A stretch of DNA of 64,000 nucleotides from NCBI GenBank assembly GCA_017642585.1, contig JAGCOR010000017.1, positions 17,937 through 81,936 of the forward strand. Direction: 5' to 3'. This DNA is from Alphaproteobacteria bacterium (GTDB lineage: Bacteria > Pseudomonadota > Alphaproteobacteria > Rs-D84). The notes below the pieces were generated by a model that made no database searches, was not told where the DNA came from, and saw only the letters and a program-made list of their open reading frames with translations. Every line of letters starts with the position of its first letter. The stretch's first letter is position 1. This document shows, piece by piece, positions 12,116 to 55,161 of the stretch. A program made the position numbers and the translations under genes.

Positions 12116-13420
12116 ATGAAAAAATGTATGGTTGCATTGGTTAGTTTAATGGTTGCTTTGTCTGGGGCTGCAAATGCAGAAGAAACAGGCACAACAACAA
12201 GTACATACAGACGCGTCAGCACTGTTACAAAAACTGATGGTCGTGGCAACACAATAACCAATAATTTTTATTATAACCAAGGCGCAGGTCGTGCAAGGGA
12301 TGGCAAAACCACCAAGACAACAACCAGAACTGTTAAAAAATCATCTGGTATGAAAGGGGATTCTGGTTATGCTGGTGGCGAAACCAGATCCTATAAAAAA
12401 TCAGAATCTACATATACCAAGAAAAAAACAACATCCCAGATGCGTAAATATTTCTTGGCACATCCATTCTTTCAACCATTAAAGGGTAAATTTGGTTCTG
12501 TGACAGATATTGCATTTGCACAAAACAGTTTCAAATTTAATTTGTTAAATGGTGCAACATGGGATATAGATCCAAACAGTGCAACATATAATTTAACTAC
12601 ACCTTTTAATTCTGGTGTTATTGCTGGTGATGTTGGTGCAAAAATCAAAACAAATCAATTCTTGGTAAAAGAAGATTTCAGTTTTGGTATATCTGATTCT
12701 GTGGCAATTTTGGCAATGGCACAATATGATTCTACCAAGGTTAAATTAACCGATTGGGTTGGTTCAAATGAACCAGATGCCAGTATGTCTGATTCTGGAT
12801 TTAATACATTTGGTTTTGGTCTGCAATATCGTTTTGTTGATACAAATGATTATATCGGTATGTTGGCGGGATATTATCAAAATCAACGTGATACAGCAAA
12901 CACATTTATGGCCGATTTGAAATTTGGATATAAAATTGACAGAACAACATTGTATGGATTGGGACGTATATCATATATTGATTTAACATCTGGTAATGCA
13001 TATGGTGCGTTCATCAAAGATAAAACTGGCGATTGGTTAATGATGTCCTATAACACAGATGTTGATTCCGCCACGTTTATCGAAGGTGGTGTTGGGGTAT
13101 TCGGTGTGTTAAATAAATATTTCACATTGAACGGCGAAGTATTGTTCGGTAATTATGATTGGCACAATCAATTGACATTAAAGGGTGCATTTGGTTACCA
13201 ACCGGGTGATATGTTTGCCCTGAATTTGTATGGATCCGCAGTATTGTATGATTCCGCAGATGGCAAGGTTAGAAAATATATGAATTATGATGCAAATCCA
13301 GATGCAGCCGTACAGAGTGCTTTGGGAATCACATCCAATTTAATATATACTCAGGGTGATTACAAAATCAAAAATTACAATGAATATAAATTGGGTATCC
13401 AAGCGATATTCTATTTCTAA
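12116..13420 (+). CDS. Predicted outer-membrane beta-barrel protein with a T/K/R-rich N-terminal extension
   Basis: Signal peptide MKKCMVALVSLMVALSGAANA. About 90 aa of T/K/R-rich sequence, then alternating beta-strand-like sequence ending IQAIFYF (C-terminal aromatic). AAAGGAG RBS. Confidence 0.6.
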   Translation: MKKCMVALVSLMVALSGAANAEETGTTTSTYRRVSTVTKTDGRGNTITNNFYYNQGAGRARDGKTTKTTTRTVKKSSGMKGDSGYAGGETRSYKKSESTYTKKKTTSQMRKYFLAHPFFQPLKGKFGSVTDIAFAQNSFKFNLLNGATWDIDPNSATYNLTTPFNSGVIAGDVGAKIKTNQFLVKEDFSFGISDSVAILAMAQYDSTKVKLTDWVGSNEPDASMSDSGFNTFGFGLQYRFVDTNDYIGMLAGYYQNQRDTANTFMADLKFGYKIDRTTLYGLGRISYIDLTSGNAYGAFIKDKTGDWLMMSYNTDVDSATFIEGGVGVFGVLNKYFTLNGEVLFGNYDWHNQLTLKGAFGYQPGDMFALNLYGSAVLYDSADGKVRKYMNYDANPDAAVQSALGITSNLIYTQGDYKIKNYNEYKLGIQAIFYF

Positions 13421-13446
13421 TATTTGATTAAACAAGTGTTGATGCA

Positions 13447-14289
13447 ATGAAACGGTTTGTGTTCTTTTTGATTGGTGCGTTGGTGTCTGTTAATGCCATG
13501 GCAGAAGGGGTTGTTTTGTCCGATACATCTGTCGAAGAAGAACCTTTCGTTGCACCGCAAACCCAACAACCACAACAGGTTGCTGTTGTTGACAGCTTTG
13601 ATGCCGATGTTGCACAACCCGTTGCAAAAAACAGTTTATCAAATGATACATCCGATCCTTTGTTCTTGGTCGGGGATAACAGTTTTTTATCTGATACGTA
13701 TGTTTCATTTTTAGATGATAAATTACGCATAGGTGAATATTTGGGTTATGGCATAAATAACAATTTTGTTTTTCATGCCAATATGCATTACCAAATTGAT
13801 TTTTCACACGATCATGAAAATGGTTTTTCTGCAACTGAATTTGGCGGAACATATCGTATGAATCATGGCGGTGGCAAAAATCATATAATTGCTGATGCTT
13901 TGTTCGGGTTGAAACTGTGGGGCGGTTCTCATATCAGAACACCTGAATATGCAGATTCTTCTTATTTTGCCGGTTTGCGTTTTGGTCGTCAATATAACGG
14001 AATAACATTGGCGGGTACTGTTAAATCTACTTGGGTTTTTGATGATAATCGCGGTTTATCCTATATAGATTTTATACCGGAAGCTTATTTACGATTCCAA
14101 TATAATTGGCGTATGGGATTGGGCTTTGATATTCGCAGATCAACAAATCCACATTTATTATCAAATCAAGAATGGGTTAATTTCAAACTGTTGCGTCAAT
14201 TCGGTAACACGCAATATGTTGGAAAATTAGATTATGAATTCGACAGCCATGATTTACAGGCCGGGTTCAATATCAGAATATTATTTTAA
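13447..14289 (+). CDS. Predicted outer-membrane beta-barrel protein
   Basis: Signal peptide MKRFVFFLIGALVSVNAMA. Q/P-rich linker, then beta-strand-like sequence ending GFNIRILF. Confidence 0.55.
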   Translation: MKRFVFFLIGALVSVNAMAEGVVLSDTSVEEEPFVAPQTQQPQQVAVVDSFDADVAQPVAKNSLSNDTSDPLFLVGDNSFLSDTYVSFLDDKLRIGEYLGYGINNNFVFHANMHYQIDFSHDHENGFSATEFGGTYRMNHGGGKNHIIADALFGLKLWGGSHIRTPEYADSSYFAGLRFGRQYNGITLAGTVKSTWVFDDNRGLSYIDFIPEAYLRFQYNWRMGLGFDIRRSTNPHLLSNQEWVNFKLLRQFGNTQYVGKLDYEFDSHDLQAGFNIRILF

Positions 14290-15623: not shown

Positions 15624-15980
15624 TTGGTAAATAAAGATTCTGAATTTACGTTGGCGGTGGCAACTTTGGCGGCTGCAGCCATAGGTGCAAACCCAAAATT
15701 ATCTATGAAGGATGCCGTAAAACAGGCAACTGAGATATTGCGTGGCATTTCTTTGACCCCTGAACAAATCGCAGATTCTGTGACTGATGATGCAATTCAA
15801 TGTTTTGAAGACGGCACATGGCACGTCATGTTAAAGCGGTATATCAAAAGAAAGTTTAATTTAACCCCGCAACAATATTGTGAAAAATGGGGTTTGCCTT
15901 TGGATTATCCTTTCGTTGCATCAAAATATGCCAACAAACGTTCCAAGATTGCAAAGAAACATGGGTTCGGTAAAAAATAG
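15624..15980 (+). CDS. mucR: MucR/Ros-family transcriptional regulator with the zinc ligands lost
   Basis: The C-terminus LTPQQYCEKWGLPLDYPFVASKYANKRSKIAKKHGFGKK matches the Ros/MucR signature. The zinc-finger segment reads QCFEDGTWHVMLKRYIKRKF. TTG start with an AAAGGA RBS. Confidence 0.75.
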   Translation: MVNKDSEFTLAVATLAAAAIGANPKLSMKDAVKQATEILRGISLTPEQIADSVTDDAIQCFEDGTWHVMLKRYIKRKFNLTPQQYCEKWGLPLDYPFVASKYANKRSKIAKKHGFGKK

Positions 15981-15990
15981 GGTGCGTATT

Positions 15991-18006
15991 ATGAAAGTAT
16001 ATGTAAATATCGAAAATAAAAATTGGAAAAAATATAAAATAGATTTTGAAAAAATCGCCAATGCGGCGGTTTCTGCCGAACACAAAGATGCAGAGGTTTC
16101 AATTACATTGGTTGATGATAAAACAATTCGTAAATTAAACAGGGAATATCGCGGTTTTGATAAACCTACAAATGTGTTATCTTTTGAATTGGGTGATGAT
16201 GTTTTATTGGGTGATATTTTTATATCATTAGATACTGTGAAAAAAGAAGCGGATGCAGAAAACATATCTGTCGCGGAACATACTGCGCATATGATTGTTC
16301 ATGGAATTTTACATTTGCAAGGTTTTGATCATTTAACAGATCAAGAAGCCAAGGTTATGGAATCTAAAGAAATCAAAATATTAAAAAAATTGGGATATAA
16401 AAATCCTTATGCAGATGAAGATATTGGTTGCAGTGATGAATCTTGTTGTCCTGGCAAATTTATAACAAAATTAAAAAATATAAAAATACGTGAAAATGGA
16501 TTTTGGCAATATGTGTTATATGCTGTATTCGGCGGAATTGCTTCCTTTGGTTTCGCACCATTTTATTTATGGATGTTGTTTACGTTAGGTGTGGGCGGTG
16601 CATATTATTTAACAATTAAACAAACAAAGCATGTCAGTTTTATGAAATCTTGGTTGATAACATTTCCTTTCGGTGCGTTTTATGGGATGTTTATGTTTTG
16701 GTGGGTTTTGAATTCTATTTATGTTGTCCCGGAACTGGCGCGTCAATTTGCAATTTGGACAATACCAGGATTATTGGGAATCGGTTTGATTTGCGGAATT
16801 ATTTTGTCCCTGCCTTTTGCGGTTATTAGATATGTAAAGCGCAAACCGGCACCCAGGGCGATTTTGTTTGCTGCCACTTGGATGTTTGTTTTATGGTTGC
16901 GGGAATGGATTTTTACAGGTTTTCCATGGAATCCAGTATCAAATATAACTATGCATTTTCCAATGGTTGCTAATTCTATGGCGCTGTGGGGTGCATTGGG
17001 ATTGACTTTTGTTATTATTGGTTTGATTACTTCTTTGGTTGAAATTTTGAAAAACAAAAAATGCAAATCTTGTTGGGTTATATTTTTAATGTTTGTTTCT
17101 TTGTTCGTGGTTGGATGTGTTTATGGACATCACAATATGAAAAAAATTGATAATGTAAATATGGATAATTTGCCTTTGATTAGAATTGTGCAACCCGCGG
17201 AATCTGCCGTGTACAAAATGCCAAAGACAAGGGCAGAGGCACAACAACAGGCCGATCAAAAGGTTCGCGATTTATTTGTTTGGGCAACCAAAGACACAAC
17301 AAACAAACCTGATATTATTGTTTATCCAGAAACAACTTATCCATATGTGGTTGTAGATGATAAATTCCCATTGTCACACATATTAAATACAAATGTGGTT
17401 ATGGGTGTGAATCATTATGCAGACGGCAAAATGTATAACTCTATGGTTGTGGCAAACAAATCTGGTGTGATTGATAATTTATACAGCAAATCTCATTTGG
17501 TTCCGTTCGGAGAATATCGCCCATTTGGTGATATAATTCCAACCCCCGGACAATTGGAAGCAGGTAATGGTCCAGAATTGATAGTTATAAATACTCAACA
17601 CGGTGATTTCGTTTTTGCACCAGCGATTTGTTATGAAATTATATTTTCAGATTCTTTGATTCCAAATCGTATTACACCAAATGCAATTATCAATATTACA
17701 AATGATACTTGGTTTGGTTTAACACCGGGGGTATTTCAGCATCTGGATATGGTGAAACGTTATGCGATTGAATCTGGTGTTCCTGTTATCCGTGCGAATT
17801 ATTCGGGAATCAGCGCTTTTGTCGCCAGTGATGGAAATGTTGAATCATGGATGCCGGTTGGGCAAAATGGTTCTTTGGATGGGTTTGTGTGGGGTGCGCA
17901 TGAAACGCTGTACAGAAGATTAGGGCGAAATTTATGGATGATGATTATTTTAGCTTTTTCAATAATTGCTTCAATATCCATATCCGTATTTCAGAAGAAA
18001 GATTAG
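15991..18006 (+). CDS. ybeY-lnt: In-frame fusion of YbeY endoribonuclease and apolipoprotein N-acyltransferase Lnt
   Basis: The N-terminal ~140 aa are YbeY (HMIVHGILHLQGFDH zinc motif). A linker follows at 16411..16500. Then comes a full Lnt: multi-TM N-terminus, IVYPETTYP, SKSHLVPFGEY and APAICYEIIF, which together give the E-K-C triad. No stop and no Met occur at the junction. I chose ATG 15991 because 15880 would overlap mucR. Confidence 0.8.
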   Translation: MKVYVNIENKNWKKYKIDFEKIANAAVSAEHKDAEVSITLVDDKTIRKLNREYRGFDKPTNVLSFELGDDVLLGDIFISLDTVKKEADAENISVAEHTAHMIVHGILHLQGFDHLTDQEAKVMESKEIKILKKLGYKNPYADEDIGCSDESCCPGKFITKLKNIKIRENGFWQYVLYAVFGGIASFGFAPFYLWMLFTLGVGGAYYLTIKQTKHVSFMKSWLITFPFGAFYGMFMFWWVLNSIYVVPELARQFAIWTIPGLLGIGLICGIILSLPFAVIRYVKRKPAPRAILFAATWMFVLWLREWIFTGFPWNPVSNITMHFPMVANSMALWGALGLTFVIIGLITSLVEILKNKKCKSCWVIFLMFVSLFVVGCVYGHHNMKKIDNVNMDNLPLIRIVQPAESAVYKMPKTRAEAQQQADQKVRDLFVWATKDTTNKPDIIVYPETTYPYVVVDDKFPLSHILNTNVVMGVNHYADGKMYNSMVVANKSGVIDNLYSKSHLVPFGEYRPFGDIIPTPGQLEAGNGPELIVINTQHGDFVFAPAICYEIIFSDSLIPNRITPNAIINITNDTWFGLTPGVFQHLDMVKRYAIESGVPVIRANYSGISAFVASDGNVESWMPVGQNGSLDGFVWGAHETLYRRLGRNLWMMIILAFSIIASISISVFQKKD

Positions 18007-19129: not shown

Positions 19130-20077
19130 TTACTGCATAAGATGCGGTGCCATAGATATTATATTATCAATATAATCTGAATATGCATCAAAATTTTCTT
19201 TTTCGTCTTCGTCTATGCTATCAGCCGGGTTATTAGAGATAAATTCAGATATTTCTTCAATTGAATGGAATACCATTATGTCATCGCCGGGGGTGTAGAC
19301 GTTCTTGGTATCCAATATAAATGCAAATATATTGATTGGAATATCTTCCAGTGTTTCTTCAAACAAAGCCCTTAATTTACCGATTGAGGCTTTCAGTTTA
19401 TTCATATCACAATCAACCGCACCCATCCACAAAACTTCGTGATTACCAATCGCAAATAAATTCGTTTTTAATCCTGCGATTGTTAAATTAGGTTTAACCA
19501 CATAACTGTTTTGTTCAAATATATTGCGTAATTCTTGGTCGTATATAGTTGTATTTTGTTGTGGTCCAGAATTATTTGGTGCAGGGTTTTGTTGTTGCAT
19601 ATAATTATTTTGCGCCAAAGTTTCCATGTTTCTTGGCAGATTCAATTTTGGCGGGCGATTTAATAAAACCGCAGTAGGAATATCAGATACCTGGGGTTCA
19701 GGTTCGGTGTGTGTGTTTTGCACCGGTTGGGTTTGTTGGACCGTTTGTTGTGGCGCAGGCTGTTTTTGTTCCATCACAGGTTGTTGATGAATTTGAGGTG
19801 TTGGTTGTTGTGGAATTACTGGTTTGGGTAATTTTCTGAAACGTGGGCGGAATATTAAATACAAACCAAATATCAATATAAACACACCAACACCCAAAGA
19901 TATATAGAAAGTTTTATCAATTGGGGTATGGGTGGCCTGAAGCGAAGCCAATTCTTGCCAGTGTTTTGCAGACAGCAAATTAAATCCAAATTTTGTGTTC
20001 AACCAGAAGGTCATTCCCAACACAACAGATATGATCAACAATATAGATAATAAAACGTGTTCAAAAAATTTTCTCAT
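19130..20077 (-). CDS. Hypothetical membrane protein (2 TM, P/Q-rich linker, C-terminal globular domain)
   Basis: Two TM helices in the first 80 aa. A linker rich in PQQPTPQIHQQPVMEQKQPAPQQTVQQTQP. An unrecognised ~150-aa acidic C-terminal domain. Confidence 0.6.
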   Translation of the reverse strand: MRKFFEHVLLSILLIISVVLGMTFWLNTKFGFNLLSAKHWQELASLQATHTPIDKTFYISLGVGVFILIFGLYLIFRPRFRKLPKPVIPQQPTPQIHQQPVMEQKQPAPQQTVQQTQPVQNTHTEPEPQVSDIPTAVLLNRPPKLNLPRNMETLAQNNYMQQQNPAPNNSGPQQNTTIYDQELRNIFEQNSYVVKPNLTIAGLKTNLFAIGNHEVLWMGAVDCDMNKLKASIGKLRALFEETLEDIPINIFAFILDTKNVYTPGDDIMVFHSIEEISEFISNNPADSIDEDEKENFDAYSDYIDNIISMAPHLMQ

Positions 20078-25905: not shown

Positions 25906-25932
25906 CAAAAACCGCCATATTGGCGGTTTTTT
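25906..25932. terminator. Bidirectional rho-independent terminator, CCGCC/GGCGG family
   Basis: CAAAAA-CCGCC-atatt-GGCGG-TTTTTT. It sits between the convergent Yip1-like and porin-like genes. Confidence 0.8.
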
Positions 25933-26968
25933 AAAATCCACTTCGCAGTCCCACTGCAAAAAACGGGGTTGTGTCTGCAAGACCCGCAGACATAAATAAA
26001 CTGGTTTCTTCGGTGTATTTATATCTGAATGAACCCAGCACAGTATGTATATTATCGCCATGTTTTAATTTATTTCCAAATTCATCCCTGTGTGTCCAAA
26101 TGTTTGTATTAGAATACAGATATGTCAAAGAAACACTGGATTGTAATAAATCATAACTGACCCCAGAACCCGCGACAATACCGTCTGCGGTTTTATTGAT
26201 TGGGTTACGGTCATAAATCATACGGGCAGATGTGCCAAATACAAAACTGTTATATTGCAGGTTGATTCCCAATGCCACCTGGGTGCGCCAATCTGCCGTT
26301 ACATTTGGGGAATATGAATTTTCAACATAATCTTCTGGTTTGTTCATATATGACAGCGCCAAAGAATAGGCGGCCTTTAATTTCCCAGCCGGTTGTTTAA
26401 ATTTAAATGCGAAATCAATTGCATAATTATAATCGTCATTTAATCCAGATACAGAAAATCCGTATTGGCCATATTCTGTTTGTTTTGTGGCCAAATTTAA
26501 TCTTAACGCTTCATGTCCAGTTGTTGCAGCGGTATCAGATATTAAAACTTTTTTTAACTTTAATTCTTTGTGCAATATAGATTTATCATTGATTCTTAAA
26601 TACCCAACATCAGGCAATCCCAATCCCATTTTACGTGCGATAGAATGGGTTAAGCCAAATTCAGATCGACCAATATTTTTATCTTCAAATAAAATAAATG
26701 CATCATGTATATATTCGTCATCTTCTACGCAATCTGCATCCAATGAATAGACGGCACCAAAACGTTGTGTGTCGTTGAATTTATAGAAAGCCCGCGCCTT
26801 GACATCCCAATCGTCGATTACAATCATTTTATCGTCTTTGGGTTCCAAGAATCCAATCATGCCGTCTGCATCTAAATCAAATTTCCAATTGCCAGCAGAA
26901 TAATCAAGTGCATAGGCATTTGAACAAACAAATAATACAGTAAATAATGATATGATTTTATTTTGCAT
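25931..26968 (-). CDS. Predicted outer-membrane porin-like beta-barrel
   Basis: Signal peptide MQNKIISLFTVLFVCSNAYA. Amphipathic beta pattern throughout, ending AVGLRSGF. Confidence 0.6.
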   Translation of the reverse strand: MQNKIISLFTVLFVCSNAYALDYSAGNWKFDLDADGMIGFLEPKDDKMIVIDDWDVKARAFYKFNDTQRFGAVYSLDADCVEDDEYIHDAFILFEDKNIGRSEFGLTHSIARKMGLGLPDVGYLRINDKSILHKELKLKKVLISDTAATTGHEALRLNLATKQTEYGQYGFSVSGLNDDYNYAIDFAFKFKQPAGKLKAAYSLALSYMNKPEDYVENSYSPNVTADWRTQVALGINLQYNSFVFGTSARMIYDRNPINKTADGIVAGSGVSYDLLQSSVSLTYLYSNTNIWTHRDEFGNKLKHGDNIHTVLGSFRYKYTEETSLFMSAGLADTTPFFAVGLRSGF

Positions 26969-31254: not shown

Positions 31255-33516
31255 CTATTTCAAAGGTTCCAAAATTTTAATTTCTTTGGTTTGTGGATTA
31301 TATATTTTTGGAACGCCATCATATCCCATAACTGCATGGTGAGAAGGAATCAAGAATTCAGGCAATGGGGACGCTTCACCCATAAGTGCTTTGGCGTGTA
31401 ATTTTTTCTGAACTTCGTTTGAATTGAGTATATGGAATTCTTGTTCCGCTTCTATTGGGCGGTGATACCAACCTTGATATAAGATCAACTGTTTTCCTTT
31501 TTCGATTTTCATAATGTCGTATGGTGAATATAATGGGGATTCTTTTGTTTCTTCGACTTCTTTGCCGTCTTTGTCTTTCTTCTTTTCTTTCTTCTTTTCC
31601 ATACCAATCATTTCAGAAAACTTTTTCGCGGTTTCAAAATCGTTTTGACGCAAAACAACTTTTGCTGCGGTTGTGGAAATAATTGTAGCGGCCGCATCTG
31701 CACCATATCTTTCTTGAATCTGGTGAATATCCTGGCCAATAATTAAATAGGATACTTTGCATCCACGTCCTAAATCTGGACCTTGGATAACCGCGTCCAA
31801 TTTTTGCATTTTTGGCATTTCATCCAAAGCAAACAACACAGGGTATGGCCCAACTTTTTTGCCATCAACGATTGTGCCCGGGGTGTGTGCCAATAAATAA
31901 TTAGACATCAATTCAATAAATATAGCGGTAATTGGGTTGACCGCTTGGGCATCAACCAGGTTCACAGACAAATAAACACTGACAGGTTTAACCTTGCCGT
32001 CCCTTGGGTCTTTCAATCCGCGTAAATCTTCAAAGTGGAAATCAGAATGGCTGGTTCTGTTGCGAACAGCGGCATTACGGAATATTGCCAAACCTTCGAT
32101 CATTGTTGATAAAATAGATCCACGTTCTTTATCTGGGGTATTTGCTAATTGGGTTAATTCAGATACAGAACGGCTGGCGTATGCGTAACGACGTGCTTCG
32201 TCCACGGCGCCCAATAACAAATCTTTCATTGGATCTGCCATCATAACCATTTGATCGCCTTGCTTTCTGCGTTCGGCCATTTGTTCTGCGATTGCAACCT
32301 GGCTGGTGGTAATCCAATCAAGAATCATAGATAAAGATGCCTCTTTGCCACGCCATGAATCTGGGATGTGTTCCCATGTTCCAACGTGCACATAATTCAT
32401 CGCATTTAATTCGCCGTTCTTTAACAGGGAATAGGCCGCATACGCATTTGGATCATTTATCATAGATAAATAATAATCACCCAACACATTGGCATCATCC
32501 GTATTAAAGGTTCCATTGTTTATACGTGCAAAGAAATAATCATCTGCTTTGGCACGTTCTACTTTGGATACAATAAAGTTAATAAGACCAGACAGCCCCG
32601 CACGTCCTGTGTTTGCCCAGTGGGGATCTTGGACGCTGTCTTTGACTAAAACCTTGCTGATTGCGTCGATATACAAATCACGTTGTTCGGGTGCAAAAGG
32701 AACATGTTCTGGCGATAAAGGATTCCATGATGGGTAATAAATACCTTTTTCTGGTTCATCCTGACCCGCCCAATTCAGAATAAATACATGACTGACCGTC
32801 GCACGATACCCAGAAGTAACCTGTTTCAATTCTGGTTTAGGATCGTTTATAATCATAGAAACACTATCACAATCTAAAATTGTTGGAATAATAACCCCCT
32901 GGGTTTTACCGGTTCCCGGAGGCGCCAAACACAAAGCAGACAAAGGTTCGTCAAACATTAATGGAGTTAATTTTCCTTTGTATTTAAAATACCCCAACAC
33001 CATCATGAAGCCTTTGAACAAACCTTCCTTGTTTTTGAAATCAGAAGCCATTTTTTTAATATCATCTGCGGTTGCTTTACGGGCAGATGTTTTATCAAAA
33101 GTATCTTTACCCGCAGGGTTAAATTCAAGTTTCACAGAATCATCAACCAAGAAGAAATATGCAATAAGTGGTATAATAGGTAATATACATGGATAATCAG
33201 GATGAGATAATATGCGGGTCAGCCAAAATGGTATTTCAGCGATAACCGATAAACCACCCGTCAGGGCAGCATTTCTTAAAAATATCAAAGACCAATGTTC
33301 TGTGGCGGGGCCCCAACCATAGCGCCATATATGTTCCGCAATGAAAGATAAACCAAACATCAACGCGCACAACAACCAAATCAACACAGACCAACGTATA
33401 TTCCAGAAATCACGTGCAACGGGCAGTTGCTCGTGTTCTTTATATGCTGCTGAATCAAAGATTTTTAAACCTTTGCCAGAACCAGATAAAGAGAAAATGT
33501 TGAACTTTGTTGCCAT
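31255..33516 (-). CDS. Type IV secretion coupling protein (VirD4/TraG/TraD family ATPase)
   Basis: N-terminal TM helices. Walker A LAPPGTGKTQGVIIPT and Walker B-like VLFALDEMPKM, plus LIIGQDIHQIQERYG. K/E-rich insert EKKKEKKKDKDGKEVEETKE. The start is either 33516, which lies 7 nt after a TGATATAAT motif, or 33555. Confidence 0.8.
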   Translation of the reverse strand: MATKFNIFSLSGSGKGLKIFDSAAYKEHEQLPVARDFWNIRWSVLIWLLCALMFGLSFIAEHIWRYGWGPATEHWSLIFLRNAALTGGLSVIAEIPFWLTRILSHPDYPCILPIIPLIAYFFLVDDSVKLEFNPAGKDTFDKTSARKATADDIKKMASDFKNKEGLFKGFMMVLGYFKYKGKLTPLMFDEPLSALCLAPPGTGKTQGVIIPTILDCDSVSMIINDPKPELKQVTSGYRATVSHVFILNWAGQDEPEKGIYYPSWNPLSPEHVPFAPEQRDLYIDAISKVLVKDSVQDPHWANTGRAGLSGLINFIVSKVERAKADDYFFARINNGTFNTDDANVLGDYYLSMINDPNAYAAYSLLKNGELNAMNYVHVGTWEHIPDSWRGKEASLSMILDWITTSQVAIAEQMAERRKQGDQMVMMADPMKDLLLGAVDEARRYAYASRSVSELTQLANTPDKERGSILSTMIEGLAIFRNAAVRNRTSHSDFHFEDLRGLKDPRDGKVKPVSVYLSVNLVDAQAVNPITAIFIELMSNYLLAHTPGTIVDGKKVGPYPVLFALDEMPKMQKLDAVIQGPDLGRGCKVSYLIIGQDIHQIQERYGADAAATIISTTAAKVVLRQNDFETAKKFSEMIGMEKKKEKKKDKDGKEVEETKESPLYSPYDIMKIEKGKQLILYQGWYHRPIEAEQEFHILNSNEVQKKLHAKALMGEASPLPEFLIPSHHAVMGYDGVPKIYNPQTKEIKILEPLK

Positions 33517-33523
33517 GCCTGAT

Positions 33524-33538
33524 ATTATATCATAAAAA
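33524..33538 (-). promoter_or_regulatory. Extended -10 promoter motif, exact TTTTTATGATATAAT
   Basis: Minus-strand exact copy. The TATAAT ends 7 nt before the ATG at 33516 of the coupling-protein gene, which suggests a possible leaderless transcript. Confidence 0.45.
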
Positions 33539-33569
33539 GAAACCTTTTTATACATAAAGATTTAAAAAA

Positions 33570-39206: not shown

Positions 39207-39254
39207 GTCTTTTTTTGATTGGGGTTTTGTGGTAAAATTGAAAGAATGAGAGAG

Positions 39255-42200
39255 ATGATGAAAAAAGTATTGTTTTTTGCTTTTTTATCGGTTTGTTTGT
39301 CGTGCGATTTTGCATTTGCTGCAAGGTGTGTTCCTACAACAACTTCGAATGGGTCTCAAAATGAATATTTATTCCCAAACCAAGACTCTAAAAATAGGAG
39401 AAAGAATGTAATGATTTGTGGTGGCAGATCTGATGAGTCTTGTCCGTCAAATGCCTATGTCGGAATTATACATACTATAGATGAAAGTCATTATCGGGGT
39501 GATGAAAAAATAACAGTAGCTGCTGTGTATAGATGTGATACCGATGGTGGACGCAGTTGGGAATTTGCAGGGTATGATGAATTTAAAAGGGACAACCCGA
39601 ATAGTATAATTACATCATGTGCGGGGTTTGATGGATATAAATGTAATTATGCTTTGAACAATGATGTAAACAAGGTTGTTTGTTGTCTGAACAGTTTGAT
39701 ATGTGCCAACCCAAAAATGGCAGATCGAATGATATGGGTTGGTTGTGGTGTGGAGCAGAATGGATGCATACAATCTAATAAATATTGGTATAATGGAAAA
39801 TGTAATGATAATCCACAATCTGCACAATCGACTTCTCAATCTGCACCGCAACAGCAAGCACCGCAACAAACTTCTTCAAATTCTGGTCAAACCATGAGAA
39901 ATGTTTCTGTTGTTCCAGGAAGCGCATGCGGAATTGCCCAGATATCCAGCAATCCTGTGGAAAACACTAAACACGCCAAAAATCTGCATACACCAGGGCG
40001 TTATTTAATTTGCATGAACCCAAACAATTTATATCGTCCAGCGGCAGGATCCAGCAGTCGCTATGTTTATGATCAATTTAATTGTTCAGATAATACGTTG
40101 TTATATGATGATTCTGAAAACAAAATTATAAAATGTTTATATTCTACTGGTGGATGGGCAGAAGGAAATCATGGTAATTTACCAACATGTGCACAAGATG
40201 GCCAAGGAAAAACCCAAGCTGGAACAATCAGCATATCTGGTGGTGAAATTGTTATATATGGTGACAAGATAACTTTTTCTTCTGGAAATGTTAATTCACA
40301 TACGTGGAAAAATATATGCAAAGTACAACGTTCTGCTGCACCAGAAACAAAAAATTATTCTGGGGTTATAAAAGATAAAGATACAGGCGAACCGTTGCAA
40401 TCCGTTAACATATCGATACCAGGTACAACCAGTGGGTGTACAACAGATGCAGAAGGAAAATTTGGAAATGGTGATAATTATTGCAGATTGACATCAGATA
40501 CTGTGACGATTTCATATGTTGGGTATGAAACAATCACTGGTAAAAAACTGGCATTGACAGGTAATGACATTAAAATGAAACAAGTTGCTACCCAATTAAA
40601 TGCGACTGATGTTGTTGCTGTAGATAATAAGACAATTTGCACTAACAATAATGGAACATGGGATGAACAAAACAATACATGCAGATGTCCAAGTAATAAA
40701 CCCAGATGGGAAGGAACTGGGGCTAACCCTGGCTGTTTATCAACTTGTACATATTTAGGCAGACATCCAAACCAAGCTTCACCAGAACGTTTGGCATGTT
40801 GCAGGGCGGGCAGTGCGACAAAATGGGAAGGCAATGATACCCAGGGTAATTGTATTTGTATTGATGCCAGCAGACATGTTGATGCGTCTAAACAATGGGA
40901 CGGCACGACTTGTGCTGTGGTAAATAATCCACCAACACCAGAAGAACAATGTACTGCGTTGGGAGATTTTGTCAGATGGGATGCCACGACATCACAATGT
41001 GTTTGCACGGATGAAACAAAAAGATTAGATGGTACACAATGTATTCCTGCAAACAGCGGTGGACCTGAATTAACACCAGAACAAGAATGTACCGCATTGG
41101 GAGAAATTGTCAGATGGGATGCCACGACATCACAATGTGTTTGCGTTGATGAAACAAAAGTATTAAATAATGGTCAATGTGTTGACAAAGATGCACCTGC
41201 AACCCCAGTAACCCCAGAAAAAACACCAGAAGAAATTTGTAACGAATTAGGTGCTGATGTCGCGTTGTGGGAAGGTGGCGTATGTAAATGCAAAGATCCA
41301 AAGAAAGAATATCAAAATGGTCAATGTGTTGATAAACCAGAACCTGTCAGAACACCACAAGATGCGTGTAATGATTTGGGTGAAATAGCTGTTTGGCAAA
41401 ATAATCAATGTGTATGCGTAGATGAAGTGAGTGATTTTGTATATGATGAAGCAACCAAAACAGGTAAATGTGTTGAAAACGAAAAAAAGAAAAAAGCCAA
41501 GGCGTTAAAAGATAAAACAGATGCGTATAAAAATGCAAAAGACAAAGAACAATCTTTAGCGAACAGAACTTTGACCGCTGCAACCACTGCCGCAACCGGA
41601 TTGGGAATGATGGAATTAATGATGGGCAAAGCGGAACAGAAAGCGGATGCAGATGCCGAACAAGATATGGCGGCATACATGGCAACAATGCGTTGCACAT
41701 ATGCGGGCGGTAAATCTGTAAAGGCCGGCCCCGAAGAAATAGAATTACCTGGTGGAAACGATGGTAAATTGATGTCATACCGCAGTGAATATATAGCATT
41801 GGCAAAAAGTTTGAAAGAACGCAAAACAGCCATGGATATGTTACCAGGTATAGAAAGTGAAGAGATATTAGATAAAGCAGAAATGGGATTATACGATGAT
41901 GAAAACAAAGGTATAGAAAGTGGTACATATGCATCATTGTATAGAGCGAAACAGGGCAGTGAAGAAGACCAAAAGAAGATAGATGCTGACAAAGAAAAAT
42001 CTGCTAAACGAGTTAAATATGGTGCGACTGCGTTGGCGGCGGGTGCTGCGGTTGGTGTTGTTGGTAACAGTTTAATAAATGGTAAATTGGGTGAAAAACT
42101 GAAAGCAGCGAAAGAAGCCAAAAAAGAAAAGAAAAGCAAAAGCCCGAATGTAAAAGAAGATAATCGTCCTGTTATCAAACACGCACCAAATCCAGAAAAT

Positions 42201-43046
42201 ATGAAATCAGAAGCACCTGTTATAACAGATAGCGGTTCATCAGATTCTGGACAGGATAATGGTGTTGCAAATGTTGTTGGTGTTTTAATTGGAACAACAG
42301 GTAGTGGTGGGGCAAGTGCTACAACTCCGTCTGGTGGCAATGTTGGTGGTACAAGTCCAACAGTAGAAAGTCAAAGAATAAGTTACGATGAACCTGATGT
42401 AGATGGAACAAAATGGAGTGAATCTCAATATTTACAATGTTTTGCACATTTCTTCCCGAATGATAGATATTCTTCTAACTTAAGATCTTATTGGGCTAAA
42501 TCACATAACAATCAATATTGCAGTGGCTATACTGGTGGTAAATATATATATGATTTCAAGAAAAACCCAAATCCATGTCCACAACAAAAATTTAGATCTT
42601 TGAATGCTGGTGAATGGGAAATTCAAATAAGAAACGGTAATAAATCTGTCAAGGGTATAGCTGTTTGCAATAATACTGCTGGTGGTCAGGAGGATGAATT
42701 GCGCGATAATGTTGATGCACACACGGACAGCGGTAAACATTGTTGGTGCAAGATAACCCAGACAGATTTGAATGATTGTTTGGTTACCCAGAAATTCTCA
42801 TGGGAATACAGGGGAGAGTTTGGACTTGTGGATGCAGAAGACGTGGAATGGTTTAATGACAACAAGACAAGTTCATATGTAGATCTATATCCTGCAGGAT
42901 ATTATCAAGAAGGGCAAAATAGTTGTTTGTGGGAATGTGCTGATGCATGTGCATACCATTTGTTAGATTATGGTCGTCATCGTCAAAGACAAATGCATGG
43001 TGTGCCACAGATAGTAGATTTTGTTAAAAAGTATAATAATATGTAA
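39255..43046 (+). CDS. Giant cysteine-rich mosaic exported protein of unknown function
   Basis: Uninterrupted ORF. The signal peptide is MMKKVLFFAFLSVCLSCDFAFA, and the start is uncertain among 39219 TTG, 39246, 39255 and 39258. Segments in order: an N-terminal Cys-rich domain, a Q/S linker, a CarboxypepD_reg-like segment (40355..40585), EGF-like Cys repeats including 138-bp tandem units (40938..41480), K-rich segments, a Gly/Ala hydrophobic module (41560..42130), and a Cys-rich C-terminal domain. Confidence 0.85.
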   Translation: MMKKVLFFAFLSVCLSCDFAFAARCVPTTTSNGSQNEYLFPNQDSKNRRKNVMICGGRSDESCPSNAYVGIIHTIDESHYRGDEKITVAAVYRCDTDGGRSWEFAGYDEFKRDNPNSIITSCAGFDGYKCNYALNNDVNKVVCCLNSLICANPKMADRMIWVGCGVEQNGCIQSNKYWYNGKCNDNPQSAQSTSQSAPQQQAPQQTSSNSGQTMRNVSVVPGSACGIAQISSNPVENTKHAKNLHTPGRYLICMNPNNLYRPAAGSSSRYVYDQFNCSDNTLLYDDSENKIIKCLYSTGGWAEGNHGNLPTCAQDGQGKTQAGTISISGGEIVIYGDKITFSSGNVNSHTWKNICKVQRSAAPETKNYSGVIKDKDTGEPLQSVNISIPGTTSGCTTDAEGKFGNGDNYCRLTSDTVTISYVGYETITGKKLALTGNDIKMKQVATQLNATDVVAVDNKTICTNNNGTWDEQNNTCRCPSNKPRWEGTGANPGCLSTCTYLGRHPNQASPERLACCRAGSATKWEGNDTQGNCICIDASRHVDASKQWDGTTCAVVNNPPTPEEQCTALGDFVRWDATTSQCVCTDETKRLDGTQCIPANSGGPELTPEQECTALGEIVRWDATTSQCVCVDETKVLNNGQCVDKDAPATPVTPEKTPEEICNELGADVALWEGGVCKCKDPKKEYQNGQCVDKPEPVRTPQDACNDLGEIAVWQNNQCVCVDEVSDFVYDEATKTGKCVENEKKKKAKALKDKTDAYKNAKDKEQSLANRTLTAATTAATGLGMMELMMGKAEQKADADAEQDMAAYMATMRCTYAGGKSVKAGPEEIELPGGNDGKLMSYRSEYIALAKSLKERKTAMDMLPGIESEEILDKAEMGLYDDENKGIESGTYASLYRAKQGSEEDQKKIDADKEKSAKRVKYGATALAAGAAVGVVGNSLINGKLGEKLKAAKEAKKEKKSKSPNVKEDNRPVIKHAPNPENMKSEAPVITDSGSSDSGQDNGVANVVGVLIGTTGSGGASATTPSGGNVGGTSPTVESQRISYDEPDVDGTKWSESQYLQCFAHFFPNDRYSSNLRSYWAKSHNNQYCSGYTGGKYIYDFKKNPNPCPQQKFRSLNAGEWEIQIRNGNKSVKGIAVCNNTAGGQEDELRDNVDAHTDSGKHCWCKITQTDLNDCLVTQKFSWEYRGEFGLVDAEDVEWFNDNKTSSYVDLYPAGYYQEGQNSCLWECADACAYHLLDYGRHRQRQMHGVPQIVDFVKKYNNM
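40938..41480 (+). repeat. In-frame tandem repeats (138 bp = 46 aa) inside the giant gene
   Basis: Units 40938..41075 and 41076..41213 are highly similar and share the exact 36-mer GTCAGATGGGATGCCACGACATCACAATGTGTTTGC (40971..41006 and 41109..41144). Two more diverged units follow, up to about 41480. The protein motif is C-x3-G-x4-W-x5/7-C-x-C-x-D-x9/13-C. Confidence 0.9.
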
Positions 43047-53488: not shown

Positions 53489-54442
53489 ATGATAAAAAAA
53501 CTGTTCGCTGGGATGTTGTGTTTGATAACATCTGTATCTTTTGCAGAAGAAGATATGACAATACAGGGGGCGGAAGAATTATTTGAAGCAACCAAAATTG
53601 TATGTATGGGAATATCCGATGAAATATCCCACGTTTCAAAAATATCCAAGGTGAACACAGCGGTTACTGCGGCAGGAACGGTCGCTGCTGGTGGCGCATT
53701 ATATGCTGGTATTAAAAAATCCCAGGAAGAAAAAGAAATAGATGCTCTTGTGGACAGAATGTGCAGAGCAGGTGGATGTGATTCGGAAACCGTTAAAAAT
53801 ATGAGCTTGGAAGATTTTTATAATAACGTGATTTCCCCGATGGCGCAAATTGCAGAATTACAGAAAAAATTAGAAAAATCTAAAAAGTTAGGTAATTGGA
53901 GAACAGGTTTAATGGCGGGAACAATTGGAACCAATTTGGCATCTGCGATTATATCTGGGGTAAACGCAAATCAATCTGAATTGATTCAACATATAGAGGC
54001 ATGCAATGACATGGTGAAATCTGTGGAAACTGCATCTATGCAATTAAAAGCGGCGGGATTCAATCCGGCGGAAAATCCAGTTATCAAAAAATTAGATAAT
54101 GTCAAAACATGGTGTTCCCAGATAAATACAAATGATGTAGAAAAAATTGAAAAACGTATGAAAGGCGTTATGGGTACGTCCATTGCAGGTACTGTGGTTG
54201 GTGTTGTTGGAACTGCAACCAGTGCGGCTGCGAATTCTGATAAATATATGGATGCGCAAAACAGAATTGGTTTGACTGATGAAGAAAGACAAAAAGCAAA
54301 AAATTTGAATACCACAGCTAATATCATGGCGGGGGCGAACGTTGCCACAGGATTGGTTGAAACTGGGCTGAATATATCTTTGATTACATTGACCAAAAAT
54401 TTAATGTCCCAAGCAGGTCGTTGTGAAGAGGTGTTACAATGA
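53489..54442 (+). CDS. Exported protein with four Gly/Ala/Thr-rich hydrophobic segments (glycine-zipper-like); paralogue of the central module of the giant protein
   Basis: Signal peptide MIKKLFAGMLCLITSVSFA. Hydrophobic segments: TAVTAAGTVAAGGALYAGI, GLMAGTIGTNLASAIISGV, GTSIAGTVVGVVGTATSAAA and IMAGANVATGLVETGL. AAGGGAG RBS 13 nt after the nlpD stop. Confidence 0.8.
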   Translation: MIKKLFAGMLCLITSVSFAEEDMTIQGAEELFEATKIVCMGISDEISHVSKISKVNTAVTAAGTVAAGGALYAGIKKSQEEKEIDALVDRMCRAGGCDSETVKNMSLEDFYNNVISPMAQIAELQKKLEKSKKLGNWRTGLMAGTIGTNLASAIISGVNANQSELIQHIEACNDMVKSVETASMQLKAAGFNPAENPVIKKLDNVKTWCSQINTNDVEKIEKRMKGVMGTSIAGTVVGVVGTATSAAANSDKYMDAQNRIGLTDEERQKAKNLNTTANIMAGANVATGLVETGLNISLITLTKNLMSQAGRCEEVLQ

Positions 54443-55161
54443 TAAAAAAATTGTTATTATTTTTATTGGTCTTATTAAGTGGTGGATATATTCAATCATC
54501 TGCCTTTGCGGATGAGGTCCCCAGAGATATATTCAAAGATGCTGAAAATATGCACAATGATTATTTGGCACAAAGAATTGATTTGGCTGCGGCCCAGGCC
54601 ATATGTCAATCTATGTTCGCCTATGCACGTGCACGTAATATAAGAATTGTATTGGATGGGTTAGATGGTAATCAATATGTGCCGTATGTACAATGGTGTG
54701 AAGACAGTGATTTTAGAATAGTTGAATTTTTAACACTACAGGTTGCAGATTTTTTAAAATCTTGGTCTAATGAATCGTATTTTGCAAAAATGGTTTCTGA
54801 TGCAAAAAGGAGCTGTAAACGTTCTGCGCAGATAGAACATTTAATATCGCAACAATATGTTGTTAACAATAATGAAGTTACTGTGAAATGTTCTCATTCT
54901 GATAATCGTTGTATGATTTCTATGCCTGTAACAAAATCAGGAACAACGCAACATTATACTGCATGTTGTTTAATGCCTGATTATTCGCGTATGCAACAAA
55001 CAACAGAACAAATTACTGATGAAAATGGAAATACAGGTACCAGAACTTATTACACTGGGATAGCGGGATATGTTGATATACAGTGGAATGGGGTTACATC
55101 ACAAATACCAAATATAACAGATTTTGATTTGAAGTGTAAACCAATACAAAATGTCGAATGA
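54439..55161 (+). CDS. Exported Cys-containing hypothetical protein
   Basis: Signal peptide MIKKLLLFLLVLLSGGYIQSSAFA. No recognisable family. ATGA overlaps at both ends (54439..54442 and 55158..55161). Confidence 0.75.
   Translation: MIKKLLLFLLVLLSGGYIQSSAFADEVPRDIFKDAENMHNDYLAQRIDLAAAQAICQSMFAYARARNIRIVLDGLDGNQYVPYVQWCEDSDFRIVEFLTLQVADFLKSWSNESYFAKMVSDAKRSCKRSAQIEHLISQQYVVNNNEVTVKCSHSDNRCMISMPVTKSGTTQHYTACCLMPDYSRMQQTTEQITDENGNTGTRTYYTGIAGYVDIQWNGVTSQIPNITDFDLKCKPIQNVE

Follow-up and report, generated by a model that had tools for sequence, protein, structure and literature searches.

The 64,000-nucleotide stretch of DNA analysed here (the window; positions 17,937 to 81,936 of the forward strand of contig JAGCOR010000017.1, assembly GCA_017642585.1, Alphaproteobacteria bacterium, Rs-D84) encodes a giant exported protein with a central module of about 205 amino acids (aa). 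This module is a conserved, lineage-restricted domain and forms the constant core of a large Sec-exported, mosaic, Cys-rich protein family in Candidatus Enterousia. A sequence-only reading of the window had taken the module to be a paralogue of a 317-aa exported protein encoded further downstream. Our sequence comparisons do not demonstrate that the 317-aa protein is a copy of the module, and they point to two separate uncharacterised families; the two are tied by domain shuffling, which involves a CxxGGC element and a trypsin-like domain, and by adjacency in one genome, rather than by duplication of the module, and the likeness that had been seen stems from a shared helix type. Taken as a whole, this explanation, with a lineage-specific hairpin module at the core of one family and a separate 317-aa family tied to it by shuffling, has in our judgement an even chance of being right.

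The module and its exported family

The module occupies aa 767-972 of the giant protein, with the following features.

41517..42134, plus strand: conserved ~205-aa module, a putative hairpin (family hidden Markov model, HMM, 332 bits; the sole match in the window)
41571..41627, plus strand: module hydrophobic segment 1, LTAATTAATGLGMMELMMG, giant aa 785-803
41688..41720, plus strand: MRCTYAGGKSV, which holds the single Cys of the module and whose AGG part is variable across the family
42021..42077, plus strand: module hydrophobic segment 2, GATALAAGAAVGVVGNSLI, giant aa 935-953, with an AxxxGxxxG pattern and including a 15-mer at 42050..42064

Two Gly/Ala/Thr-rich helices flank a conserved region of ~125 aa with one near-invariant Cys, and the second segment has invariant Gly residues at a 7-residue spacing (G185, G192 and G199), with the near-invariant G196 between them. 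The family HMM was built from 121 module sequences. A word-indexed search found 310 module homologues, and an exhaustive search, clustered at 50% identity, gave at least 867 clusters, of which 738 had E<=1e-30; the proteins that hold them range from 187 to 2387 aa. The representatives returned from the exhaustive search all had E<1e-87, the distant tail lying outside those listed. All matches come from metagenome-assembled genomes (MAGs) of Enterousia or Rs-D84, with at least 2-3 copies per genome. Neither the module nor the 317-aa protein has a family in Pfam (E<=10) or NCBIfam, or a relative in the PDB.

Nearly all members of the family begin with a signal peptide, and the module may be N-terminal, in the middle or C-terminal. 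Among 243 complete modules, 240 have exactly one Cys, and no protein carries two modules. The long flanks are richer in this residue, with 4.7 Cys per 100 aa on the N side and 2.7 on the C side. Many of these modules are accompanied by passengers of more than 150 aa: 55 have them on the N side only, 27 on the C side only and 30 on both sides. The passengers of the long proteins (n=51) include CarboxypepD_reg (14), trypsin-like domains (8), Listeria-Bacteroides repeats (6) and also Big_1, and they recombine, the same domains recurring in different combinations. A Hint-like or autoproteolytic role for the invariant Cys was considered and dropped on inspection of the sequence; the loop is too short and there is no invariant His.

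No partner gene is generally conserved beside the module genes, and the sole locus with conserved neighbours is that of rplI-rpsR-rpsF (L005 3059..4747), which accounts for 33 of 80 module loci taken from reference genomes. At this locus, a small module protein is found with an exported Cys-rich protein of 562 aa, whose gene lies ~2 kb upstream of the small module gene. In the 562-aa protein, a single Gly-rich segment, TAASSAMLGSGVGTAAGLITSGA, precedes a long tail rich in Lys, Ala and Glu; the protein represents a third family in which this helix type occurs.

The giant itself has a signal peptide cleaved at AFA|A, and of its Cys residues 48 are N-terminal of the module, 1 is within it and 10 are C-terminal. 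The gene and its passengers are as follows.

39255..43046, plus strand: gene of the giant exported protein; the likely start is MMKKVLFF at 39255, and the open reading frame (ORF) opens with TTG at 39219
40359..40601, plus strand: CarboxypepD_reg-like passenger (Pfam PF13715, E=8.3e-12)
40934..41219, plus strand: 138-nt tandem repeat, 2.1 copies with 77% matches (Tandem Repeats Finder), coding for Cys-rich EGF-like repeats
42369..43043, plus strand: C-terminal 225-aa Cys-rich passenger, common to the module proteins P0282 and P0310

The EGF-like repeats are part of a repeat region at aa ~465-760, and the Cys repeats of the giant recur in three other module proteins (P0312, P0263 and P0343). 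P0282 and P0310 carry the giant-type C-terminal domain on different N-termini; this domain has no match in Pfam or the PDB. PDB sequence searches with both family profiles and with the N- and C-terminal domains of the giant gave nothing meaningful, and a Pumilio match from these searches (E=0.003, 19.8 bits) was judged spurious. The giant has an orthologue in Horse_feces296 (L006 1354..4581), at the same SPOR/SufS locus, and the orthologues differ strongly in length, with ~1262 aa in the window and 1075 aa in Horse_feces296. Two antisense ORFs lie under the module inside the giant gene (41347..41937, minus strand, 196 aa; 41405..42340, minus strand, 311 aa); they are probably artefacts of biased coding sequence, and nothing indicates that they are genes.

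Comparison of the module with the 317-aa protein

The 317-aa protein, the first of a cluster of four, has the following features.

53489..54442, plus strand: 317-aa exported protein, subfamily A (signal peptide SFA|E; family HMM 573 bits)
53657..53713, plus strand: hydrophobic segment 1, TAVTAAGTVAAGGALYAGI, the HHalign partner specific to module segment 1
53726..53887, plus strand: CxxGGC element (aa 80-133), a separable unit that is fused outside the module in P0194 and P0261
53888..53962, plus strand: hydrophobic segment 2, LGNWRTGLMAGTIGTNLASAIISGV
54164..54238, plus strand: hydrophobic segment 3, GVMGTSIAGTVVGVVGTATSAAANS, including the 15-mer at 54196..54210
54305..54391, plus strand: hydrophobic segment 4

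The four segments are Gly-rich and lie at aa 57-75, 134-158, 226-250 and 273-301, and six invariant Cys (39, 92, 97, 172, 209 and 312) are spread over every inter-segment region. The sequence-only reading had described the same ordered elements in both proteins, namely a hydrophobic segment, a charged helix, a Cys motif, a long charged helical region and a second hydrophobic segment. The shared Gly-rich segments are real, and of the window's 60 non-nested ORFs just two, the giant and the 317-aa protein, carry several uncharged Gly/Ala/Thr-rich segments; however, the 317-aa protein has four of them, not two. Segment 2 was absent from the earlier description, and one of the segments falls within the region that had been called long charged helical.

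Pairwise and single-family comparisons gave no significant support for paralogy of the whole five-element module. With composition adjustment, the best BLASTP match between the giant and the 317-aa protein had E=0.039 over 28 aa, and the Smith-Waterman scores were reached by 1-4% of composition-preserving shuffles (p=0.01-0.04). The module HMM gave at most 8.2 bits, with high bias, on proteins of the 317 family, and the 317 HMM gave 2.1 bits on the giant (E=1.9), over the VGVVG stretch only. HHalign with the family profiles returned probabilities of 4.8-5.2%, and its score of 23.3 compares with 23.4 for the reversed 317 profile and was reached in 6 of 100 local-composition shuffles. For pairwise and single-family comparisons, the alignment is thus not significant once composition is controlled for, the outcome that the sequence-only reading itself had named as refuting paralogy.

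A true but remote paralogy might have escaped such tests. Both families would then descend from a common exported ancestor in which a charged helix stood between two Gly-rich ones, and later insertions (the CxxGGC element, segments 2 and 4 of the 317-aa protein and the larger loop of the module) would have erased the signal. The more diverse comparison bears on this alternative. When the profile of subfamilies A and B of the 317 family combined (A+B) was aligned by HHalign with a module profile of 232 sequences, two collinear local matches of 37 and 22 columns were obtained, both in the register that had been proposed. The first pairs module segment 1 and the next helix with aa 55-91 of the 317-aa protein (score 31.0, P=0.0014, probability 17%), and the second pairs module segment 2 with aa 221-242, in segment 3 (score 26.6, P=0.0066). 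The score of the best path rises with profile diversity (23, 26 and 31), and the invariant S..N..T...T..G columns align. The score of 31.0 was reached by none of 150 local shuffles (maximum 30.3), with a reversed control at 25.1; even so, the HHalign probability does not exceed 17%, where homology over the whole domain would call for more than ~90%, reversed-profile controls reach 25, HMMER is blank in both directions and the regions between the segments do not align.

The segments were also compared singly in a matrix of two module by four 317 segment profiles. Module segment 1 scores 27.9 with segment 1 of the 317-aa protein, against 8-12.5 with the other three, and module segment 2 scores 24.4 with segment 3, against 13.6-15 with the others; in empirical nulls, the first pairing was reached in 0 of 300 local shuffles and the second had p=0.0067. 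As a control we used the 562-aa type of protein, with its one Gly-rich segment, which scored 24.7 with segment 3 of the 317-aa protein, 14.3 with module segment 1 and 12.3 with segment 1 of the 317-aa protein. Because this unrelated family matches segment 3 equally well, the likeness of module segment 2 to segment 3 is generic to the helix type. The likeness between the two first segments is weak but specific. The sub-alignment windows were picked after the matches had been seen, so that the segment P-values are post hoc and suggestive only. Paralogy is contradicted for two of the five claimed elements, and with these scores and the conflicts of register described below, we regard even a remote common origin as rather unlikely.

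The shared strings had been a main argument for a single family. The peptides quoted for the giant were all located (LTAATTAATGLGMMELMMG at 41571..41627, MRCTYAGGKSV at 41688..41720 and GATALAAGAAVGVVGNS at 42021..42071), as were those of the 317-aa protein (TAVTAAGTVAAGGALYAGI at 53657..53713, MCRAGGCDSETV at 53759..53794 and GTSIAGTVVGVVGTA at 54173..54217). The 15-mer GGTTGGTGTTGTTGG is indeed shared: it stands in the window exactly twice, at 42050 and at 54196, where 0.03 occurrences would be expected. As a link between families, however, neither the 15-mer nor the VGVVG core that it encodes holds, since they are conserved in neither family and in neither set of orthologues. In each family, just 6 of 121 members have VGVVG at that position; IGVVG or IGVAG is usual in the 317 family and GGIVG or GGIAG in the module family, and a single 5-mer shared between two such proteins has p=0.26. 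The 15-mer is VGVVG written in the most frequent codons of the genome (GTT 52%, GGT 46%). At this site, the giant orthologue has VGVAG (DNA GTTGGTGTTGCTGGC) and the 317 orthologue IGGVG (DNA ATTGGTGGTGTTGGA), and the 15-mer occurs in none of 87 related loci. The DNA likeness of the two genes amounts to one 26-nt stretch at 88% identity, with nothing beyond. By these sequence comparisons, both the VGVVG core and the 15-mer are coincidences peculiar to the window.

The proposed equivalence of the Cys motifs (MRCTYAGG and MCRAGGC) likewise did not survive the family alignments. The 317 family has an invariant CxxGGC pair (C92, G96 and C97), whereas the module lacks the invariant second Cys; the module family keeps one Cys, and the 'AGG' position is variable, with 'YG[DN]GK' forms (YGDGK, YGNGK and others). 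Two proteins of the module family carry a real CxxGGC element outside the module, N-terminal to it in P0194 (43.5 bits, E=1.3e-13) and C-terminal to it in P0261 (26 bits, E=5.6e-8). The registers of the element in these hybrids contradict one another as well as the register of the sequence-only reading, and the two families do not have the Cys motif in common.

The same hybrids illustrate how the two families are connected. At one locus (L091), 15 nt separate the gene of P0261, which combines a trypsin-like domain, the module and the CxxGGC element, from a 317-family gene downstream (324 bits), and the next gene is a homologue, judged by eye, of the 240-aa protein encoded after the 317-aa protein in the window. 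From its first residue, the 299-aa peptidase of the window shows homology to the N-terminal passengers carried by six module proteins. Adjacency of the two families is rare: of the 80 reference-genome module loci, none has a 317-family gene within 3 kb and only one (L048, with P0194) has a CxxGGC element.

The 317 family is not accessory in the sense that had been proposed, nor does it form one family with the module; the two families are distinct, and the 317 gene is conserved, following LysM-M23 with conserved upstream synteny in several genomes and standing in other contexts elsewhere. Subfamily A has a mean column identity of 68% and more than 1280 matches. A divergent second subfamily, B, was found at L089 1706..2659, where a subfamily A gene lies in the same region of the genome. 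Subfamily B scores 150 bits with the subfamily A HMM, lacks CxxGGC, has 1451 database matches and has no copy in the window. Downstream of the 317 gene lies the rest of the cluster.

54439..57137, plus strand: 240-aa exported protein, 299-aa trypsin-like peptidase (55158..56057) and 358-aa exported protein

The 317 and 240 genes overlap by 4 nt (start/stop at 54439/54442), as do the 240 and 299 genes (55158/55161), which suggests translational coupling, and all four proteins of the cluster have a signal peptide and several Cys. Genes of lineage-specific trypsin-like peptidases flank 317-family genes in six of the seven contexts examined (the window, L086, L088, L089, L090 and L091), in some of them directly abutting the 317-family gene. 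Three further ideas on the 317-aa protein were rejected. An internal duplication gave, in HHalign of halves and segments, a best pair (segments 2 and 3) of only 19.7 with a probability of 17%; a MarP-like protease split between the 317 gene and the trypsin-like gene had as its sole support an 11.6-bit NCBIfam match, with no Colicin_V/CvpA match; and precomputed PF14748 (P5CR_dimer) tags on some 317 homologues were not reproduced and were judged spurious.

Predicted structure and the membrane question

The AlphaFold 2 (AF2) model of the module has helices at module residues 30-74 and 165-204. The Gly-rich uncharged parts lie at the N-terminal end of the first helix, where segment 1 makes up the N-terminal half of the 45 predicted residues, and at the C-terminal end of the second. 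Our best guess is that the module is a membrane-embedded helical-hairpin anchor. Each Gly-rich helix would continue into a charged helix, and the two would pair antiparallel as a membrane hairpin, with the distal ~20 residues apolar and the conserved ~125-aa region closing the opposite end. Both module termini would then lie on one oxidising side of the membrane, where variable passengers (CarboxypepD_reg, trypsin-like, Ig-like or Listeria-Bacteroides repeats, Cys-rich repeats) could attach N-terminally, C-terminally or at both ends. The occurrence of Cys-rich exported passengers at either or both ends would be explained by such a hairpin, because it would place both termini on the same side.

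Several observations weigh against this anchor. The AF2 models are of low to moderate confidence, with a predicted local distance difference test score (pLDDT) of 63 for the module and 49 for the 317-aa protein, which makes the latter unusable, and Foldseek of the module model against the PDB was uninformative, with only coiled-coil noise at E>2. A simple Hessa-scale sum places the segments at +4.2 to +5.2 and the transmembrane (TM) helices of TatC and PBP in the window at -2.2 to +4.7, so that the segments overlap just the weakest control helices; their mean Kyte-Doolittle values are 0.97-1.5, against 1.7-2.3 for the same TM helices. With such marginal hydrophobicity, Sec insertion as classical TM helices is doubtful. 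The charges around the segments, read from the sequence, do not clearly obey the positive-inside rule. In addition, P0194 and P0261 have the CxxGGC element on the exported side, yet in the 317-aa protein the element stands between segments 1 and 2, where it would be cytoplasmic if all four segments spanned the membrane; at least some 317 segments are therefore probably not transmembrane.

Some of these features would fit proteins with no membrane segments at all. The segments could belong to tightly packed soluble helical bundles (Alacoil-type packing of small residues), periplasmic or at the surface, with the module as an oligomerisation or stalk domain. Besides the marginal hydrophobicity, the distribution of the six invariant Cys over all inter-segment regions suits a single oxidising compartment, as does the exported-side CxxGGC of the two hybrids, and the 7-residue spacing of the invariant Gly in module segment 2 also speaks for it. 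In the 317-aa protein, however, AF2 confidence is lowest exactly at the four segments (pLDDT <50), which is odd for a packed soluble core; the uncharged stretches of 19-25 residues have membrane-spanning length; and glycine-zipper hairpin lipoproteins of the outer membrane (SlyB and YfgH) embed such helices in membranes. We hold a soluble bundle to be unlikely.

The glycine-zipper lipoproteins (SlyB, YfgH and YiaD; Gly-zipper_Omp, Gly-zipper_YMGG and Rick_17kDa_Anti) offer the closest comparison for the preferred hairpin anchor. Like the module proteins, they are exported envelope proteins of diderms, of similar composition and marginal hydrophobicity, and the zipper motif is present here in module segment 2 (A-LAA-G-AAV-G) and in segment 3 of the 317-aa protein (G-TVV-G-VVG-T). 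The SlyB domain is reportedly a helical hairpin, according to the paper on its structure. In SlyB and YfgH, the Gly/Ala-rich GxxxG helices are described as glycine-zipper domains that span the outer membrane (bioRxiv 10.64898/2025.12.22.696046). Nevertheless, the Pfam models of these proteins (PF13488, PF13441, PF13436 and PF05433) match neither the module nor the 317-aa protein at E<=10, and their lipobox is missing here, inspection showing AXA-type sites instead (...CDFAFA|ARC in the giant and ...SVSFA|EED in the 317-aa protein). Moreover, the two TM helices of the zipper domains are adjacent, whereas those of the module are ~125-130 residues apart with a conserved domain between them, and the module proteins, unlike the lipoproteins, bear large mosaic Cys-rich passengers.

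A shared membrane-active function had also been suggested for the giant and the 317-aa protein. A shared membrane-related role is plausible. In its strong form, the suggestion would make them pore-forming agents, whose zipper helices insert after export into a target membrane, either that of another cell or the outer membrane of the producer itself. The zipper motifs of module segment 2 (AxxxGxxxG) and of 317 segment 3 (GxxxGxxxT) would allow this, the hydrophobicity of the segments is too low for Sec stop-transfer to be assumed with confidence, so that they would probably be exported, and an organism without standard transporters may rely on partner cells. Glycine zippers in weakly hydrophobic helices are found in the N-terminus of Tde1 of a type VI secretion system (T6SS), where they act in this way, in the LXG/EsxX C-termini of type VII secretion systems (T7SS) and in ionophoric toxins of contact-dependent inhibition (CDI), which they serve likewise (PMC10240207, PMC12744356, PMC11630599). 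The window proteins resemble these toxins in having zipper motifs within polymorphic mosaic families; unlike them, they have Sec signal peptides, and neither the window nor the related loci examined showed a T6SS, T7SS or CdiB context. In the usual layout of toxins, the toxic domain is the variable tip. Here the opposite is found, the Gly-rich module being the conserved core and its flanks variable, and no immunity-like gene is conserved beside the module genes. No pore-forming family was matched in Pfam, NCBIfam or the PDB; Foldseek with the module model, a weak negative given the moderate confidence of that model, gave ClyA (6mrt_A) at E=3.0 with a probability of 0.04, and colicin chains at E>5. 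For the 317 family, the 68% mean column identity and the conserved upstream synteny fit a housekeeping envelope role better. We consider pore formation quite improbable.

Surface families of the type V autotransporter kind share with the module family a constant module combined with shuffled passengers (proteases, Ig-like or repeat domains) in several copies per genome. Their anchor is a beta-barrel, whereas the module is predicted to be all-helical, may be N-terminal, in the middle or C-terminal, and has no sequence or fold match to known anchors. It is conceivable, and very improbable in our estimate, that the module is a hitherto undescribed, all-helical device for surface display or translocation in these gut Alphaproteobacteria with reduced genomes. 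It would be a Sec-exported glycine-zipper hairpin oligomer in the outer membrane or in the membrane of a partner cell, which would display or deliver shuffled Cys-rich passengers, including proteases, joined to either end, and would work with the conserved 317/trypsin-like operon to attach to other cells or to capture nutrients from them. If this were true, the helical module would be a functional analogue of autotransporters in an organism without standard transporters. On the defining features that were tested, none of the compared systems includes these proteins, for which just the bare GxxxG-type motif was found.

Genomic setting and significance

The window is chromosomal DNA with a GC content of ~36%, and housekeeping genes predominate in it (MutL, SecDF, FtsK, ThrRS, SufS/SufE, PBP, RecJ, LolA, TatC and others). 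Its closest genome is Horse_feces296, and nearly all homologues of the giant and of the 317-aa protein come from gut or rumen MAGs named Alphaproteobacteria or Candidatus Enterousia. One module locus (L072) and one subfamily B protein (P0479) were deposited as 'Clostridia bacterium' MAGs, probably because contigs were mis-binned; the rest are Alphaproteobacteria or Enterousia.

Other genes of the window are also worth recording. A 766-aa ORF (31255..33555, minus strand) matches T4SS-DNA_transf, the type IV secretion coupling protein (E=5.9e-50), as well as TraG-D_C and TrwB, which suggests that a type IV secretion system is retained, at least in part, in the reduced genome. A 708-aa ORF (15880..18006, plus strand) has a YbeY endoribonuclease at aa 50-171 together with domains of apolipoprotein N-acyltransferase (LNT_N, CN_hydrolase) and could be a gene fusion, or two genes in one frame read from an upstream GTG. 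Further ORFs of 280-521 aa without a Pfam match at E<=0.001 (12116..14289; 19130..20077, minus strand; 25931..26968, minus strand; 59536..61101) may come from the same lineage-specific pool.

The failure to merge the two loci into one family calls for caution in taking short Gly/Val-rich identities and matching codons as evidence of homology. Enterousia belongs to the order Rs-D84 and has genomes below 1 Mb that lack the tricarboxylic acid cycle, respiration and standard transporters and code for numerous hypothetical membrane proteins (PMC12306168). Both families described here are large and have neither a Pfam or NCBIfam model nor a solved relative, and they make up a conspicuous repertoire of exported, Cys-rich mosaic proteins in bacteria that, with genomes of less than 1 Mb, appear to depend on other cells. 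That several module copies with shuffled passengers are kept in genomes so small suggests an important function at the envelope or in cell contact. The defined module, together with its link to trypsin-like peptidases, provides concrete targets for understanding the interactions of these uncultured gut symbionts with their environment.

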